Of a stretch of DNA of 41,775 nucleotides, positions 3,868-40,479 are shown one piece after another. The notes under the pieces were generated by a model, which did no database searches, had not been told where the DNA came from, and was given only the letters and a program-made list of their open reading frames with translations. The stretch lies in UHGV virus genome UHGV-0209075, one strand, 5' to 3'. A program made the position numbers and the translations under genes. Source of the DNA: a virus. Positions within the stretch are counted from its first letter, which is position 1. Every line of letters starts with the position of its first letter.

Positions 3868-4293
3868 TTAGTGCATCACCACGGCATTTCCCGCCGGACC
3901 ACCACGATTCATCTGATTGAAACCAGCGATCGCCACTGCAACAAAATCATCAGCGTCTCTCACCAGTCGTTCCCGCGTCTCCACCAGTTCCCGAAACCAG
4001 GCTGAACTGTGGCTGCGCATTCGGGCCACCAGCAGAGGCGGCATTGCTTTTTCGATCGCTGGTAACAACGCCTGAATTTTTTTAACCGCATCAGGGGTGT
4101 CTTTCTCCACCCAGCGGAAAATTTTCTGAGTATTGCGAGCCAGGGCTTCCGGATGGCTGTCGTCATACAGTTCCGGGAACGTCATTCCCAGCTCGAAATA
4201 CGCTTTGGTAATTTTCGCAGCCGGTACTTTTTCGCCGTCCGGATGCGCCCAGGCATTCATCGCCATGCGGATGTGTTCATGCTTGATTTTCAT
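3868..4293 (-). CDS. CII-position regulator, resembles YdaT-family proteins of Rac-like prophages
   Basis: 141-aa ORF translationally coupled to cro-like gene (start/stop overlap at 4290-4293); N-terminus MKIKHEHI; synteny. Confidence 0.5.
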   Translation of the reverse strand: MKIKHEHIRMAMNAWAHPDGEKVPAAKITKAYFELGMTFPELYDDSHPEALARNTQKIFRWVEKDTPDAVKKIQALLPAIEKAMPPLLVARMRSHSSAWFRELVETRERLVRDADDFVAVAIAGFNQMNRGGPAGNAVVMH

Positions 4294-4505
4294 GAATCAT
4301 TCTTTCCTTCGTTCGAGGTGCTATCCTGCTTCTTGTAAAGTTCTGGGTTGTATTTCAATTCACCGTTAGTAATTTCATCCAGTTCCATTGCGCGAAGTTT
4401 GGGAATAACTGCTTGCCACCGCACAACAGCCACATGTGAAATTCCAAGAGCCTCAGCTACTAGTCGCTTTTTTTTGAAATAGCGCAGAACATCATCTTTG
4501 AACAT
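4290..4505 (-). CDS. Cro-like HTH regulator (YdaS/Cro type)
   Basis: 71-aa ORF divergent from repressor; HTH segment KKRLVAEALGISHVAVVRWQ; AGGAGA SD 5 nt upstream of ATG 4505. Confidence 0.7.
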   Translation of the reverse strand: MFKDDVLRYFKKKRLVAEALGISHVAVVRWQAVIPKLRAMELDEITNGELKYNPELYKKQDSTSNEGKNDS

Positions 4506-4534
4506 AAAACTCTCCTGTTATTTCGAGCAGGAGG

Positions 4535-4596
4535 GTAACAATAGTTACATAGCAATGTCAACCATAGCAACATCACTTGGTAGTAACATTGGTTAC
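4535..4596. promoter_or_regulatory. OR-like operator region: two 14-bp dyads GTAAC-N4-GTTAC (4535-4548, 4583-4596) in the repressor/cro intergenic region
   Basis: GTAACAATAGTTAC and GTAACATTGGTTAC, centre-to-centre 48 bp; the second abuts the repressor ATG at 4597. Confidence 0.5.
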
Positions 4597-5271
4597 ATGA
4601 AAAACACTATCAGCGAACGTATTCGGAATCGTCGAAAAGACGTTGGATTAACCCAACAGCAGGTTGCGAAAGCAATCGGCATATCTCGTGTATCCGTAAC
4701 AAAATGGGAAAATGGCTCTTCAAAACCTGACGGTGAGAATTTGCATCTACTGTCAAAATTGCTTTCCAAATCTCCTGAATGGATTCTTTATGGAAAGGAC
4801 GGTCACGATAAAACCGATGATCTGCGTCTGAATCAGTATCTTTACATTAGTGACAACATCGCCCGGTTGCCCGTTTTAACGTGGGAACAGGCTGGTTATT
4901 GGGATATGAGTTGTCCAGTAACCGAGATTCCTGGCATTAAGAATTGGGTTGATGTCATGACAAAAACCGCTGAAAACTCTTTTTTATTGCATGTTGAGGG
5001 AGATGCGATGACAAACTCTAACGGCCTCCCAACCATCCCCGATGGATCTACCGTGCTGATCACACCATGCTCAAGTAACATTAGAGAACTGGTGGGAAAA
5101 ATAATCTTAATCCAATTGGAAGGAACGCCAAACGTAACACTAAAAAAAGTTGCGATTGACGGACCAAACATCTATCTGTTGTCACTGAATCCGCTTTACA
5201 AACCCATCGAACTGAATGGTGGTTACACCATTAAAGGTAAAGTTTCACAAATACATCAATACTTAGACTGA
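4597..5271 (+). CDS. cI: CI-type repressor (HTH_XRE N-domain + LexA/S24-like C-domain) with Ala at the nucleophile position (GDAM instead of GDSM)
   Basis: HTH LTQQQVAKAIGISRVSVTKWENG; C-domain motifs HVEGDAMTNSNG and VTLKKV align by eye with lambda CI EVEGNSM / FTFKKL; start taken at ATG 4597 (ORF-track ORF begins at TTG 4498). Confidence 0.8.
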   Translation: MKNTISERIRNRRKDVGLTQQQVAKAIGISRVSVTKWENGSSKPDGENLHLLSKLLSKSPEWILYGKDGHDKTDDLRLNQYLYISDNIARLPVLTWEQAGYWDMSCPVTEIPGIKNWVDVMTKTAENSFLLHVEGDAMTNSNGLPTIPDGSTVLITPCSSNIRELVGKIILIQLEGTPNVTLKKVAIDGPNIYLLSLNPLYKPIELNGGYTIKGKVSQIHQYLD

Positions 5272-6194: not shown

Positions 6195-6200
6195 TAGCTA

Positions 6201-6283
6201 ACCAACGAAGCTAAGGTTGGTAATTAAGGAGTTCTCCACGGGTGAAGTGGAGTGCGTGCGCCGGACACGGGTGAACATCCGGC
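6201..6283 (+). other. three tandem stem-loops; the second and third share the motif CACGGGTGAA
   Basis: ACCAAC/GTTGGT (6201-6221), CTCCAC/GTGGAG (6234-6252), GCCGGA/TCCGGC (6260-6283); 10-mer CACGGGTGAA at 6237-6246 and 6266-6275; no U-tracts. Confidence 0.4.
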
Positions 6284-6578
6284 ACTGACAGTTTACTGAA
6301 AGGATATTTCTCTGAAAAGTCAGAGCATAACGCGAAAGCACACGGAGAAGCTCGTCTCTCTGTACTTTGTCGTTAAATTTAATTCGACCGTGCGCTTCCG
6401 GTTGTGGCAATCCGCGAAATGGCGCGGCGGTAAGTATGGCGGGGTTATTCCTTCCCCTTGAGGACACCGGGTTGTCAGGCTGACCATACGCTTAAGTGAC
6501 AGCCACGCCACAATATCCATGTGTAGTCTTTGGTGGCATCAGTTCTACTCCGTGACTGCTCTGCCGCCCTTTTTAAAG

Positions 6579-6732
6579 TGAATTTTGTGATGCGGTGAAT
6601 GCGGCTCAGCGCACGCGGAACAGTTAAAACAAGCGGTCTTTTACGGGCGTAACGGGAATGCTCTGTATCCGGCGTTAATTGTTAACTGGTTAACGTCACC
6701 TGGAGGCACCAGGCACCGCATCACAAAATTCA
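6579..6732. repeat. 154-bp element bounded by a perfect 19-bp inverted repeat (TGAATTTTGTGATGCGGTG / CACCGCATCACAAAATTCA)
   Basis: Arms at 6579-6597 and 6714-6732 are exact reverse complements; right arm ends 5 nt before the GAGGA SD of the 6750 ORF; interior contains GTTAACTGGTTAAC and CCTGGAGGCACCAGG palindromes. Confidence 0.6.
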
Positions 6733-6749
6733 TTGTTGAGGACGCGATA

Positions 6750-6938
6750 ATGGAAACGTTATTACCAAACGTTAATACGTCTGAAGGTTGTTTTGATATT
6801 GGTGTTCTGCTCAGTAACCGGGAGTTTACGGAAGATGCCATTAAGATGAGAAAATATGAACCTTATCTTCTCAATGATAATTCCATACTTTCCAGAATTG
6901 CCCTTCTTGAACTTGGTATTATCGGAGAACAGCAGTGA
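6750..6938 (+). CDS. small protein (62 aa), AT-rich cargo gene; function unknown
   Basis: ATG 6750 preceded by GAGGA (7-nt spacer); lower GC than neighbours. Confidence 0.4.
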   Translation: METLLPNVNTSEGCFDIGVLLSNREFTEDAIKMRKYEPYLLNDNSILSRIALLELGIIGEQQ

Positions 6939-7218: not shown

Positions 7219-9693
7219 ATGAGTAAAATCTTTATTTGCGCTGCTATTCCTGACGAACAGGCCATAAAAGAAGATAGCGCTGTTGCGGTGGCCACTGCCA
7301 TTGAAGCCGGTGATGAACGTCGCGCCCGCGCAAAATTTCACTGGCAATTCCTGGAACATTATCCGGCTGCTCAGGACTGCGCTTATAAATTTCTTGTTTG
7401 CGAGGATAAACCCGGTATACCCCGCCCTGCCCTCGATTCCTGGGATGCTGAATATATGCAGGAAAACCGCTGGGATGAGGAATCCGCTTCCTTTATTCCG
7501 GTCGAACCAGAATCCGATCCGATGAACGTCAATTTTGACAAGCTGTCCCTTGAAGTACAGAACGCGGTCCTGGTTAAGTTCGGTACATGTGAAAACATCA
7601 CCGTTGATATGGCGATTGACGCGCAGGAATTACTGCAGGAAGACGTTGCTACCTTTGACGGGCATATCGTTGAAGCACTGATGAAAACGCCTGAAATTAA
7701 CGCTATGTATCCGGAACGCAAACTGTTCGCTATCGGATGGGTTAAACACAAATGTAATCCGGGTGCCAAATGGCCAGAAATTCAGGCTGAATTACGTAAC
7801 TGGAAAAAACGGCAGGACGCAGAGCGCAAAGAGACTGGAAAATACACGTCTGTTGTTGATCTCGCCCGCGCCAGAGTCAATCAACAGCACACTGAAAACT
7901 CAGCAGGAAAAATCAACCCAGTCACTGCCGCCATTTGTCGCGAATACAAGCAGACATGGAAAACGCTGGATGAAGAACTGGCCTACGCTCTCTGGCCTGG
8001 CGATATTGATACCGGAAACATTGACGGCAGCATCCATCGCTGGGCAAAAAATGAAGTTATCGACAAAGATCGCGAAGACTGGAAGCGCATTTCCGCATCA
8101 ATGCGCAAACAACCCGATGCCGTTCGCTACGACCGTCAGACTATTTTTGGCCTTGTCCGTGAGCGTCCGATCGACATTCACAAAGATCCCGTAGCACTGA
8201 ACAAATACATCACTGAATACCTGACTACCAAGGGCGTGTTTGAAGATGACGAAGGAACAAATCAGGGCACAGCTGGTACTCTCCCGTCACCAGTACCAGA
8301 AACTGATGCAGTGGAAACGGCAATGCCGGACAACGAAAAAACCGAATGCGAAGTGGAAGACGAACCATCTGTAGAGCGTGAGGGACCGTTCTACTTCCTT
8401 TTCACCGATAAGGACGGCGAAAAATACGGTCGCGCAAACAAACTTTCTGGTCTGGAAAAAGCACTGGCCCTGGGAGCTACGGAAATCACAAAAGAGGAAT
8501 ACTTCGCACGTAAAAACGGCACGTACTCAGGTTCACAACAAAATACTGGTGCATCTGACACGATCGCACAACCAGAGCCGGTAAAAGTTACCGCTGACGA
8601 AGTAAACAAAATTATGCAGGCAGCCAATATCAGCCAGCCTGACGCCAATAAGTTGCTTGCTGTATCACGTGGTGAATTTGTTGCAGGGATTAGCGCCCCG
8701 AATGATCCGAAATGGGTGAAGGGGATTGAAACCCGCGATTCAGTGAATCAGAACCAGCAAGAAACGGAACAGAACGGCCAGAAAGCGGAACAAAACAGCC
8801 CAAATGCGTTACAAAACGAGCCAGAAACGAAACATCCTGAACCAGTGGCGCAACAGGAAGTGGAAAAAGTCTGCACCGCCTGCGGTCAGACCGGCGGCGG
8901 CAACTACCCTGATTGTGGCGCGGTGATGGGCGACGCAACATACCAGGAAACATTCGATGAAGAGTATCAGGTTGAAGTTCAGGAAGATGATCCGGAGGAA
9001 ATGGAAGGCGCTGAACATCCACACAAGGAGAACACTGGCGGCAATCAGCATCACGATAGCGATAATGAAACTGGCGAGACGGCAGATCACTCAATTAAGG
9101 TGAACGGTCATCAAGAAATCACATCCACCAGCAGGACGTGTGACCATCTAATGATCGACCTTGAAACCATGGGAAAAAATCCTGATGCCCCGATCATCTC
9201 AATAGGTGCAATATTTTTCGATCCGCAAACCGGAGATATGGGACCGGAATTTAGTAAGACTATCGATCTGGAAACTGCTGGCGGAGTCATTGATCGGGAC
9301 ACCATTAAATGGTGGCTTAAGCAATCACGCGAAGCGCAATCTGCCATTATGACCGATGAAATCCCGTTAGATGATGCACTGTTACAATTGCGGGAATTTA
9401 TCGACGAAAACTCCGGTGAATTTTTTGTTCAGGTCTGGGGAAATGGAGCCAACTTCGACAACACGATTTTGCGCCGTTCATACGAACGGCAGGGGATCCC
9501 CTGCCCGTGGCGTTACTACAACGATCGCGATGTACGCACAATCGTTGAGCTGGGGAAGGCCATAGACTTCGATGCCAGAACGGCTATTCCATTCGAAGGT
9601 GAGCGCCATAATGCACTTGATGACGCCCGTTACCAGGCAAAATACGTTTCAGCTATCTGGCAAAAACTGATCCCGAGTCAGGCTGATTTTTAA
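7219..9693 (+). CDS. large early-left protein with C-terminal DEDDh (DnaQ-like) 3'-5' exonuclease domain
   Basis: Exo motifs MIDLETMG, WGNGANFDNTIL and HNALDDARYQAKY in roughly residues 645-810; Glu/Gln/Asn-rich acidic linker; N-terminal ~340 aa unassigned. Confidence 0.7.
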   Translation: MSKIFICAAIPDEQAIKEDSAVAVATAIEAGDERRARAKFHWQFLEHYPAAQDCAYKFLVCEDKPGIPRPALDSWDAEYMQENRWDEESASFIPVEPESDPMNVNFDKLSLEVQNAVLVKFGTCENITVDMAIDAQELLQEDVATFDGHIVEALMKTPEINAMYPERKLFAIGWVKHKCNPGAKWPEIQAELRNWKKRQDAERKETGKYTSVVDLARARVNQQHTENSAGKINPVTAAICREYKQTWKTLDEELAYALWPGDIDTGNIDGSIHRWAKNEVIDKDREDWKRISASMRKQPDAVRYDRQTIFGLVRERPIDIHKDPVALNKYITEYLTTKGVFEDDEGTNQGTAGTLPSPVPETDAVETAMPDNEKTECEVEDEPSVEREGPFYFLFTDKDGEKYGRANKLSGLEKALALGATEITKEEYFARKNGTYSGSQQNTGASDTIAQPEPVKVTADEVNKIMQAANISQPDANKLLAVSRGEFVAGISAPNDPKWVKGIETRDSVNQNQQETEQNGQKAEQNSPNALQNEPETKHPEPVAQQEVEKVCTACGQTGGGNYPDCGAVMGDATYQETFDEEYQVEVQEDDPEEMEGAEHPHKENTGGNQHHDSDNETGETADHSIKVNGHQEITSTSRTCDHLMIDLETMGKNPDAPIISIGAIFFDPQTGDMGPEFSKTIDLETAGGVIDRDTIKWWLKQSREAQSAIMTDEIPLDDALLQLREFIDENSGEFFVQVWGNGANFDNTILRRSYERQGIPCPWRYYNDRDVRTIVELGKAIDFDARTAIPFEGERHNALDDARYQAKYVSAIWQKLIPSQADF

Positions 9694-11394: not shown

Positions 11395-11440
11395 CCGCAG
11401 TATCCTGTCATGACAAGTTACTGCGGCTTTTTACTTTTTA
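11395..11440 (+). terminator. strong hairpin + U-tract beyond attP (tI/sib-like position)
   Basis: CCGCAGTA...TACTGCGG 8-bp outer stem with internal TGTCA/TGACA pairing, followed by CTTTTTACTTTTTATATTT. Confidence 0.5.
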
Positions 11441-35704: not shown

Positions 35705-35920
35705 TTACTCTCCCCGTGCAGCCTTACGACGGTCCTCTCTGATTTTGAAATACAGGTTAGTCAGATATGTCAGGAAGCCCAGAACCAGACTCCCCAGTAC
35801 ACCAATCGCAGCCCACTGTGACGGACTGACCTGATCAAGCCACTGTAAAAACCAGTAGCCAGCACTGCCTGCGGAGGTGCCGTAGGCAATGCCCGTTGAA
35901 ATTTTATCCATGGATTTCAT
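35705..35920 (-). CDS. S: pinholin/antiholin S21-type with dual start (MKSM)
   Basis: From ATG 35920 (GGAGGTGA SD): [29 protein letters not shown]; two TM segments; second Met at codon 4. Confidence 0.85.
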
Positions 35921-36055
35921 AGCCTCACCTCCGCAGCGAACGGATGGCGTAGTTATAAGGGGAGCGAAAAAGAAAGAATGCGCGATTGCGCAATATGGTA
36001 ACGTCAGGGTATTATCCACTGGCTGAATAGATCACTTCACGTTTTTTGTTCCTTG

Positions 36056-36085: not shown

Positions 36086-36090
36086 GCATG

Positions 36091-36121
36091 TAAAAAGGCC
36101 CCAACACATGTGCGTGGGGCC
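36091..36121 (-). terminator. hairpin + U-tract on minus strand between cargo ORF and holin
   Basis: GGCCCC-13 nt-GGGGCC followed on minus strand by UUUUUAC. Confidence 0.45.
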
Positions 36122-36517
36122 TGAGAGTATACATGGTTTCAGTCAACTGCATGGTGCCGGGTGCCTCCCGGTGAATTCAGTACCAGCACCTGAATCCGCG
36201 ATTATCCCATATACCTACTCGCTGATTGCCCCTCCGCACAGGGGGATTCACCATGCCAGTTTCTTTTAACAAACTCCCCGCAAACCAGACAACAGTCAAC
36301 CGCCTGAATTGTGAAGTATTTAAAAATTTCTCCCGCTAACTGATACCCGGCTAACAGTCTGGCGTTTTCTTTTTCAGCAACGGGAAAGCAACAACCACCA
36401 CACCCGCCACCAGCACACCGTCAGCCAGCACTGACATTATCCGGCTGCTGCAATGCCACTCACAAAAACAGTAAGCAATCACTTTTTACCGTAACAAGTG
36501 ATAATCCAGATATGTAT

Positions 36518-36844: not shown

Positions 36845-36984
36845 TGGACCGTATAACAAACACTCAATCAATACTTAACAGAACTTTTATTTTTGACAAA
36901 CATATAATATTTTCAACAATATCCTGAGCCAGGTATATTTCAGTATAAGGCTCTGCCGGAAGGAATCTGGAAGAATGAATATAG

Positions 36985-37058
36985 CGCGCTGTACTGGATT
37001 CGAACCAGTGACCGATTGCTTAGAAGGCAATTGCTCTGTCCGGCTGAGCTAACAACGC
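36985..37058 (-). tRNA. tRNA-Arg (anticodon UCU)
   Basis: Hand-folded cloverleaf: acceptor GCGTTGT/ACAGCGC, D-stem GCTC/GAGC, anticodon stem ATTGC/GCAAT with loop CTTCTAA, T-arm ACTGG-TTCGAAT-CCAGT. Confidence 0.8.
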
Positions 37059-37158: not shown

Positions 37159-37234
37159 TGGTGGCCCTTGCTGGATTTGAACCAGCGACCTGGCGATTAT
37201 GAGTCGCTCGCTCTCACCACTGAGCTAAAGGGCC
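37159..37234 (-). tRNA. tRNA with CAU anticodon (Ile2/lysidine-type or Met), CCA encoded
   Basis: Hand-folded cloverleaf: acceptor GGCCCTT/AAGGGCC, anticodon loop CTCATAA, T-arm GCTGG-TTCAAAT-CCAGC; resembles E. coli ileX by eye. Confidence 0.8.
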
Positions 37235-40070: not shown

Positions 40071-40226
40071 TTACTCCTCAGGTTCGTAGACTGTGAAGAC
40101 AGCGACCTCCGTCTGGCCGGTTCGAATTCGTACCTCGCAGAGGTCTTTCCTCGTTACCAGTGCCGTCACTATGACGGTTAAACAGATGACGATCAGGGCG
40201 ATTAACATCGCCTTTTGCTGCTTCAT
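40071..40226 (-). CDS. hok: Hok/Gef-family type I toxin
   Basis: MKQQKAMLIALIVICLTVIVTALVTRKDLCEVRIRTGQTEVAVFTVYEPEE is near-identical to E. coli HokD/RelF as I recall it; AAGGAG SD. Confidence 0.8.
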   Translation of the reverse strand: MKQQKAMLIALIVICLTVIVTALVTRKDLCEVRIRTGQTEVAVFTVYEPEE

Positions 40227-40283
40227 AGCCTGCTTCTCCTTGCCTTTCGGCACGTAAGAGGCTAACCTAGATTTGCCGTTCAT
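40071..40283 (-). CDS. mok: mok-like in-frame N-terminally extended reading frame over hok
   Basis: ATG 40283 opens a 70-codon frame ending at the hok stop, as I recall for chromosomal mok/hok loci. Confidence 0.5.
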   Translation of the reverse strand: MNGKSRLASYVPKGKEKQAMKQQKAMLIALIVICLTVIVTALVTRKDLCEVRIRTGQTEVAVFTVYEPEE

Positions 40284-40347
40284 AGATTGAGCCTCAGATT
40301 AATGTTAAGCGTCTTGCAGGACGCGTAATGTTAACTGGGGCTTTTCT

Positions 40348-40383
40348 CTATCTGCCTTTGGTGTTCATGCCTGAGGCAGATAG
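40348..40383. other. 10-bp perfect-stem hairpin in the hok/mok upstream region
   Basis: CTATCTGCCT-16 nt-AGGCAGATAG. Confidence 0.4.
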
Positions 40384-40479
40384 CCTCAAGCACCCGCAGC
40401 AATTCTACTTAAGTTAGATAAGCTTTTCTATGGTATTCTCTCAGCGTCCCGTAAATACAGTCTCGGCTCATCATTTTTA

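Follow-up and report, generated by a model that had tools for sequence, protein, structure and literature searches.

A maintained RNA duplex in the dicF-dicB spacer of a phage genome probably marks an RNase III site and encloses a core resembling STnc100/PasD

What maintains two exactly complementary arms 116 nt apart in a stretch of non-coding phage DNA, and do they act as RNA in the transcript or as DNA? We addressed this question in the genome of virus UHGV-0209075, of which one strand of 41,775 nucleotides was analyzed in full and is referred to here as the window. The original prediction, made from the letters of the DNA, had noted a perfect 19-bp inverted repeat around 116 bp, and this was confirmed: the left arm TGAATTTTGTGATGCGGTG and the right arm are complementary at 19 of 19 positions. 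A scan of the whole window found it to be the sole perfect inverted repeat of at least 14 nt within 400 nt. Among 200 dinucleotide-preserving shuffles the maximum length of such a repeat was 10-14 nt, never above 14 nt, and the analytic expectation for a perfect inverted repeat of at least 19 nt in the window is 6e-5. The arm sequence had no further match with up to three mismatches anywhere in the window. In RNA, A-U and G.U pairs outside the 19-nt arms extend the pairing to a 21-bp duplex of -33.1 kcal/mol.

In this lambda-like prophage the repeat occupies the dicF-dicB spacer of an operon (ydfC-dicF-dicB-ydfD) that follows an immunity region of the cI/Cro type, a setting that the original prediction had not recognized. 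The gene order is that of the dicBF operon in the K-12 Qin prophage (dicC/dicA, ydfABC, dicF, dicB, ydfD, ydfE) (Table 1). The DicF sequence aligns to K-12 dicF (b1574), with a terminator U-tract extending to about 6574, and the first gene downstream of the element is annotated as dicB in matching E. coli genomes. From the DicF GCCGCCC to the 19-nt repeat the distance is 9 nt, and from the end of the repeat to the dicB AUG it is 17 nt; for the 21-bp helix, the distances are 7 nt from the DicF terminator and 15 nt to the AUG. The spacing of 5 nt between the right arm and the Shine-Dalgarno sequence of the next ORF was as predicted, and so was the lack of a credible ORF in 6195-6749, which is the 555-nt untranslated ydfC-dicB spacer containing the DicF gene. 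Out of 5,426 complete E. coli genomes, 4,730 contain DNA similar to the locus, as do 39 phage records. The ydfC-dicF leader is 92% identical to that of K-12 and showed no significant structure by folding (z = -1.2). The 2023 dicBF paper cites an older suggestion of a promoter, and a scan made on that account returned no promoter-like site in the dicF-dicB spacer. We also considered the closing stem as an intrinsic transcription terminator and rejected it: the right arm is followed by UUGUUGAGGAC rather than by the immediate U-tract that goes with a G+C-rich terminator hairpin, and a terminator scan of 6570-6749 was empty.

Table 1 Features of the dicF-dicB locus and the second STnc100 copy in the window
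Feature	Position	Strand	Basis and remarks
P22-type Cro (P22_Cro)	4290-4505	-	Pfam
HTH plus S24 repressor	4498-5271		Pfam
ydfC-like ORF, 72 aa	5976-6194	+	ORF list; K-12 synteny; last coding gene upstream
DicF small RNA	6518-6569	+	Rfam RF00039, 58.3 bits (gathering score 48), full-length model match
5' arm of closing helix	6577-6597	+	Exact inverted repeat; 21-bp duplex; perfect arm 6579-6597
Core domain, multi-branch junction, 116 nt	6598-6713	+	MFE fold; RNAalifold; sub-threshold Rfam STnc100 match
H3	6601-6605/6611-6616	+	Fold/RNAalifold
H4	6617-6619/6668-6670	+	Fold/RNAalifold; encloses hypervariable hairpin 6620-6667
H5	6671-6680/6688-6697	+	Fold/RNAalifold; conserved loop
H6	6699-6703/6709-6713	+	Fold/RNAalifold; loop AGGCA
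3' arm of closing helix	6714-6734	+	Exact inverted repeat; 21-bp duplex; perfect arm 6714-6732
dicB Shine-Dalgarno GAGGA	6738-6742	+	Sequence; 5 nt past perfect arm
dicB, 62-aa cell division inhibitor	6750-6938	+	Pfam PF05358 DicB, E = 3.7e-38, full length
DUF1482/YdfD ORF	next after dicB		Pfam
Rv2179c-like exonuclease	7219-9693		Pfam
Canonical STnc100 copy with own terminator	36086-36285	-	Rfam RF02076, 139 bits

The 162-nt element folds to a minimum free energy of -68.9 kcal/mol (z = -6.97), with the arms closing a junction of four hairpins, in agreement with the smaller palindromes that had been seen inside the 116 bp. The RNAalifold consensus and pair counts revealed compensatory changes in H4, H5 and H6. 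The core sequence and the H5 loop UGUUAACUG are nearly invariant even in copies with turned-over arms; the H5 loop and the H6 hairpin stay the same also in copies whose H5 stem has been replaced. The left GGUG(A) was also observed to be able to pair with either of two CACC motifs.

For comparison, the conserved 3' motif served as a probe to gather copies from viral contigs and from a single genome of each species, and 26 distinct long-stem copies were aligned. RNAalifold recovered the outer helix and H3 to H6 from these copies without constraint. The alignment holds 1,092 pair cells, 98.4% of which are paired, compared with only 34-43% in a control with the partners slid by one to three columns. 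Double-sided compensatory changes occurred in 11 pairs against 4.5 +/- 1.4 in shuffles, with 0 of 500 shuffles reaching 11. On the minus strand the same columns pair at 88.1%, and since the 119 G.U cells are what lowers the pairing on the opposite strand, the helix belongs to plus-strand RNA. Column pairing on the MAFFT alignment mis-registers the copies that lack a bulged A (L142, L188), and an anchored duplex analysis was used for them. In this register-aware comparison, all 16 distinct arm-pair variants keep 18-22 bp at -26 to -34 kcal/mol. The Klebsiella copy L188 retains 18 bp with 10 of 24 left-arm positions changed, and the copies from Scandinavium and Pseudescherichia carry paired substitutions in their arms. 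Among dicF-dicB spacers in viral contigs, 121 of 121 keep 21 bp; they comprise nine arm variants, whose differences are all transitions through G.U (C-G, U.G, U-A; G-C, G.U). An RNA duplex of about 20 bp or more on the sense transcript is evolutionarily maintained, and its length stays within 18-22 bp in all variants, which speaks for an enzyme that measures length rather than for generic structure.

In K-12, DicF is described with two 3' ends, a 53-nt species ending at the terminator and a 72-nt species made by RNase III, according to two secondary accounts (PMC5069750, PMC9438474) that cite Faubladier 1990. Counting 19 nt beyond the 53-nt species places the 72-nt end after UUUUUAAAGUGAAUUUUGU, past the tenth nucleotide of the 19-nt arm and between 6588 and 6589 in the window, a position uncertain by a few nucleotides as it rests on these two secondary statements and the 53-nt annotation. 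A cut there would divide the helix into an outer part of 12 bp and an inner part of 9 bp. In an RNA-seq comparison with an rnc deletion, K-12 position 1649470, listed as 'intergenic dicF-dicB' and flagged as known, had a coverage of 26 in the mutant against 0 in the wild type (Gordon 2017, PMC5371410 Table S1); this signal is a coarsely resolved coverage-ratio peak of 26 reads and lies 17 nt away from the cut position given above. The dicA-dicF-dicB intergenic regions also appear among the RNase III substrates named by a 2009 review. Two reported sites were considered for identity with this type of stem and rejected. The 2023 dicBF study mapped its RNase III site upstream of DicF, at the 5' end of a 190-nt DicF species, and this is a separate site. 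K-12 1418510 (kilR-sieB), considered as the Rac equivalent, lies just 5' of KilS and is the analogue of that upstream site.

Our preferred reading is that the arms pair in the plus-strand transcript and that host RNase III probably cuts there, splitting the DicF precursor from the dicB-ydfD mRNA. Transcripts reading through the DicF terminator would contain both arms, and in the early-left (dicBF-type) transcript these would pair into a duplex of about two helical turns closing the 116-nt core. RNase III would cut near the middle of this duplex, in the 5' arm between 6588 and 6589, a position carried over by homology from the rnc-dependent in vivo cleavage that gives the 72-nt DicF end in secondary accounts of the K-12 work; under the 2-nt 3'-overhang rule, the cut in the 3' arm would fall at about 6724/6725. 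Cleavage would part the upstream DicF precursor ('72-nt DicF'), which would retain its terminator hairpin, from a dicB-ydfD mRNA whose dicB leader would then be 25 nt long, and a 136-nt core would be excised. An RNase III processing site was one half of the first alternative of the original prediction, and it stood on the covariation, the 72-nt end described in the secondary K-12 accounts and the rnc signal; the other half, translational control, did not, as the ribosome-binding site (RBS) is predicted to be equally accessible with and without the stem. A DicF-like terminator, counted by eye from CCGCCCTTTT, directly precedes 12 of 18 distinct arm pairs, a set that includes three marginal 15-17-bp copies later set aside. 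The long-stem copies L137, L142 and L188 have no such terminator upstream, so formation of the DicF 3' end cannot be the sole role of the stem.

A model of the stem as a cleavage site also leaves part of the element unexplained, since the core is conserved far beyond the needs of a mere spacer between the arms and P1-like phages carry copies with an 8-bp stem. A small structured ncRNA had been listed among the initial alternatives, with a covariance-model search as a check, and the search supported this in part. The Rfam model RF02076 (STnc100) matched 6567-6782 over its full length (1-206, E = 9.8e-6), with the 3' hairpin of the model aligning to the start of the dicB coding sequence, but the score of 37.7 bits lies below the gathering score of 47; a likeness of the core to STnc100/PasD thus stood, and a score at the level of the Rfam family did not. 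By cmscan, pairwise alignment and RNAalifold, the spacer copy has the architecture of STnc100, namely a GGUG/CACC closing helix, internal hairpins and a terminal CCNGG-AGGCA-CCNGG hairpin. It does not carry the Rho-independent terminator of its own that stand-alone STnc100 RNAs have at the 3' side. Ten other long-stem or related copies scored 32.5-47.8 bits, and L137 alone passes the threshold. The window itself contains a canonical STnc100 copy in the late region, preceded by genes for tRNA-Met and tRNA-Arg and followed by a holin-like ORF, and the two window copies share a GGUGAAU...UCACC-[CCNGG AGGCA CCNGG]-CACC core with compensatory changes.

Altogether 207 distinct copies with flanks were collected, 38 with a long stem and 169 with a short one. 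Their own terminator follows 30-60 nt downstream in 88 of the 169 short-stem copies but in only 1 of the 38 long-stem copies, 33 of which lead into a Shine-Dalgarno sequence and an ORF within 70 nt. The genes after the long-stem copies are dicB, kilR (Rac type), rha and other small genes; the K-12 Rac copy precedes kilR and has the DicF-like sRNA KilS upstream. P1-like phages have this core as well, there closed by a stem of only 8 bp, with tRNA genes preceding it and terB or a small ORF following. Recurrence of the element at many unrelated loci, which had been named as counting against the original prediction, was found for the inner core only, the long arms being specific to the early-left class. 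Judged by these sequence comparisons, the element is best described as a modular RNA cassette between stable-RNA genes and the next coding gene, and the 21-bp stem as the feature specific to its early-left class.

Relatives of the core have been detected as RNA. In EDL933, 11 STnc100 copies were reported, one of them confirmed by Northern blot, and one copy lies 75 nt downstream of stx2. STnc100 was recently linked to the Hfq-dependent sRNA PasD, which has RIL-seq targets. We found no literature connecting STnc100 or PasD to dicF, dicB or their spacer.

These relatives bear on the alternative that the core is the functional part, a diverged STnc100/PasD member, and that the long stem is there to let RNase III release it as a separate regulatory RNA, about 136 nt long. 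Such a role would be compatible with RNase III separation of DicF from dicB but shifts the purpose of the element, and we regard it as unlikely. It is favored by the full-length STnc100 matches of every long-stem copy (32-48 bits), including the one above the gathering score, by the canonical copy within the same window, by a core and H5 loop that stay nearly invariant where the arms have wholly changed, and by relatives that are Hfq-dependent with RIL-seq targets (PasD) or visible on a Northern blot in EHEC (STnc100). For the excised core, folding also predicts -52 kcal/mol, with 9 bp of the closing stem retained. Against it, the spacer copy of the window scores under the Rfam threshold and does not have the terminator and U-tail of the canonical copies, which Hfq-dependent sRNAs normally need. 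In K-12 the rnc mutant gave 26 reads over the spacer and the wild type zero, which suggests that the core is degraded after cleavage rather than accumulating.

A more specific form of this idea, in our view slightly more doubtful again, would make the core of the dicF-dicB and kilS-kilR spacers an intra-operonic form of STnc100/PasD. The operon would then have a third functional product, cut out of read-through early-left transcripts by RNase III. If true, the excised core could act via the H5 loop or by a register switch between GGUGAAU and UCACC. The family would then have two forms, a terminator-bearing stand-alone sRNA and a cassette released by RNase III, and in lambdoid and P1-like phages throughout Enterobacterales the cassette would have stable-RNA genes on one side and toxic early genes on the other.

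The stem could instead govern dicB translation as in the lambda N leader, with cleavage or binding by RNase III relieving or imposing a block of the RBS. The helix ends only 3-5 nt before the dicB Shine-Dalgarno sequence, and toxic genes are often found downstream, such as dicB, kilR and one for a hydrophobic peptide of 38 aa, which would favor tight post-transcriptional control; duplex predictions also gave some weak extra pairing of the 3' half of the terminator with the Shine-Dalgarno sequence. However, partition-function folding was applied to transcripts with four different starts (upstream of DicF, DicF itself, the element and the predicted processed end) and gave an unpaired probability of 0.12-0.17 for the Shine-Dalgarno sequence, and the window of the AUG and RBS was equally unchanged between read-through and processed transcripts. 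The Shine-Dalgarno sequence lies outside the conserved helix, and the downstream genes and their RBS sequences vary among copies and the stem stays. Control of dicB translation by the stem is thus improbable.

Slightly less probable than that is a structured spacer that mainly shields a long untranslated stretch from Rho loading and RNase E or stabilizes the downstream mRNA, with RNase III cleavage being incidental. The untranslated stretch is indeed about 555 nt, Rho and NusG silence kilR in Rac (PMC5793797), and the element is compact and very stable. Set against this are the rest of the leader, which is not unusually structured by the z-score given above, and the constant 18-22 bp of the helix, which argues against a generic protective structure. 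Protection from Rho or RNase E is at most a candidate role here.

A DNA-level element, either a MITE-like insertion bounded by terminal inverted repeats or a segment that a recombinase flips, would account for a short segment bracketed by perfect inverted repeats and for a core present at several unrelated phage loci, but it has next to no probability: the flanks show no target-site duplication or other direct repeat (AAAG and TTGT, with TTTTTAAAG before the left arm and TTGTTGAGG after the right one) and the ORF list no invertase gene nearby, both as originally noted; for the dicB and kilR arrangements, 2.9 million viral contigs contained at least 120 occupied sites and 0 empty ones, and the inverted allele was absent from 4,642 E. 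coli genomes with the locus and from the 39 phage records; the arms covary, whereas a recognition sequence would be conserved, G.U pairs render the pairing strand-specific, and copies at other loci do not have the long arms. The inversion search used a synthetic allele with the 116-nt segment flipped, whose best match (100% coverage, 81.8% identity) was a read-through alignment to the segment in its native orientation, in genomes that match the native sequence at up to 95%. The comparison of related phages that had been proposed for presence, absence or inversion of the segment hence turned up neither polymorphism, and the MITE or invertible-element reading is refuted as far as sequence data allow.

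What remains is the duplex as a probable RNase III separation point. This finding is well founded but ordinary, as an RNase III stem between dicF and dicB is already known from the literature on the K-12 orthologue, which we cite through secondary accounts. We add formal covariation support for the helix and the exclusion of the DNA-element readings. The modestly new point is that the core appears to be a sub-threshold relative of STnc100/PasD, forming a long-stem subclass that has no terminator. The dicBF and kil modules are means by which prophages arrest host cell division, and they alter metabolism, phage receptor function and EHEC virulence. The amount of DicF relative to DicB hinges on the fate of transcripts that pass the DicF terminator, and the stem is the probable point at which the two products part; intact in 121 of 121 spacers, it offers a clean handle for uncoupling DicF from DicB experimentally. 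The recurrence of the core as STnc100/PasD, beside the tRNA genes of P1-like phages and after stx2 suggests a reusable RNA cassette in temperate phages.

Among known systems, the lambda N leader (nutL-N) also lies in an early-left lambdoid operon, where RNase III acts on a leader structure directly before a small early gene. In lambda this structure involves the RBS of N and controls its translation, whereas the dicB RBS lies outside the helix and, by folding prediction, is not sequestered by the RNase III structure. The dicF-dicB spacer also has no nut site or N-dependent logic, unlike lambda. The T7 early intercistronic RNase III sites split a polycistronic transcript into units, and the dicF-dicB site would likewise divide a phage early polycistronic transcript; the T7 sites are local hairpins with internal loops and single cuts. 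In the stalks of pre-rRNA, distant complementary flanks pair into a duplex of about two turns and the RNase III cut excises the domain between them. The dicF-dicB arms are distant flanks of the same kind, and the domain excised here would be small.

The metY-nusA-infB site (Regnier & Grunberg-Manago 1989, as cited in PMC2777011) has the same arrangement of a stable RNA, an RNase III hairpin and then mRNA, and on this account cleavage frees the stable RNA from the message. The stable RNA is a tRNA there and DicF or tRNAs here. As that source describes it, cleavage leads to decay of the downstream mRNA; the sequence is unrelated, and a simple hairpin stands there in place of the stem that closes a 116-nt multi-hairpin domain here.

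STnc100 and PasD are prophage-encoded, Hfq-associated sRNAs of Salmonella, EHEC and EPEC, and the spacer copy has in common with them the prophage location, the full-length model match and the start of the GGUG/CACC helix. It differs in a closing stem of 21 bp instead of about 8-12 bp with bulges, in the sequences of H3 and H5, and in being embedded as the 5' leader of a coding sequence without its own terminator.

The closest system is the dicF-dicB RNase III site of the K-12 Qin prophage (Faubladier, Cam & Bouche 1990, known here through later accounts), which has the same position and the same 21-bp helix. The two spacers are 91% identical (mean column identity), and each arm is identical at 18 of 19 positions. 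One transition in each K-12 arm gives a G.U pair in plus-strand RNA, and the window copy is perfect over the 19 nt. The central hypervariable hairpin is 6 nt longer in the window copy and of different sequence. The 72-nt DicF 3' end of K-12, as reported in those accounts, falls in the middle of the left arm, and by homology the cleavage site of the window phage would lie at the same place.

Besides the core of the dicF-dicB spacer element, the phage carries a canonical STnc100 RNA with its own terminator, located in the late operon between the tRNA genes and a holin-like ORF (listed below). This RNA and the spacer core are members of one family, so the phage holds two diverged copies, one in the early-left and one in the late operon.

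RNA features of the window, with the holin-like ORF next to the STnc100 copy and a DicF-like locus of K-12 Rac
Feature	Position	Strand	Remark
Canonical STnc100 RNA	36086-36285	-	139 bits; own terminator
tRNA-Met(cat)	37159-37234		STnc100 copy 36086-36285 lies downstream
tRNA-Arg(tct)	36984-37058		STnc100 copy 36086-36285 lies downstream
Holin-like ORF	35705-36019		STnc100 copy lies ~65 nt upstream
DicF sRNA gene	6518-6569	+	
sok-type antitoxin RNA	40221-40395	-	Rfam RF01794; 111.7 bits
KilS region, K-12 Rac (L249)	NC_000913.3 1418230-1418502	-	

Throughout the family the left GGUG(A) of the core is invariant (A3 columns 21-26 and 139-160; window 6598-6713), and it has two possible partners, UCACC just 5' of helix H6 or CACC just 3' of it. 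The two pairings of GGUG(A) are mutually exclusive registers. The H6 hairpin itself contains a perfect SD-like GGAGG, formed by stem and loop, and in canonical STnc100 copies an ATG follows 11 nt 3' of this motif (CACCATG). Ribosome coverage over several STnc100 copies has been reported in EHEC RIBO-seq (PMC5331693). The apical loop of helix H5 (6681-6687, UGUUAACUG), which includes the palindrome GUUAAC, is invariant: it is kept even in the Klebsiella long-stem copy (L188:6200-6364), whose two outer arms and H5 stem are altered. This loop may serve as a seed or take part in a kissing-loop contact.

The core is also shared with P1-like phages (L002, phage P7 72453-72568; L005, plasmid pF374-2), whereas their closing stem is only 8 bp long (TTGCGGTG/CACCGCAA). 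These copies are located in the C1-controlled ban operon, 3' of tRNA genes, and terB or a small ORF begins ~40 nt 3' of them. In a prophage of E. coli FDAARGOS_1260 (L003:1391-1814), the isrK and C4 antisense RNA genes and one Rha-family gene lie 3' of the element as an insertion between it and dicB. A P1/P7-type immunity cassette here sits inside a dicBF operon. Some prophage contigs (L014, L020, L039, L060, L069, L080 and L086) carry two or three STnc100-type core motifs within 0.3-4 kb, several pairs being spaced by exactly 484 nt.

Near the end of the window, the sok-type antitoxin RNA was found, implying a putative hok/sok-like toxin-antitoxin locus. Separately, a palindrome within the repressor gene (4947-4968) and another ~6.4 kb downstream (11395-11426) have the common core TGTCATGACA, which may mark operator-like sites or be a coincidence.

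The DicF sRNA gene had gone unrecognised in the original prediction. Its 5' half (GUAGUCUUUGGUGG) differs in sequence from that of K-12 DicF (GGUGACGUUUGGCGG), and its target pairing may accordingly differ as well. A DicF-like RNA is also found in K-12 Rac, where the annotated sRNA KilS (b4833; Rfam DicF 39 bits) ends in the same CCGCCCTTTTT terminator as DicF. Next comes the same long-stem element, here containing a bulged A, and kilR lies beyond it. An rnc-dependent RNA-seq site at 1418510, 8 nt 5' of KilS, is placed like the upstream DicF site.
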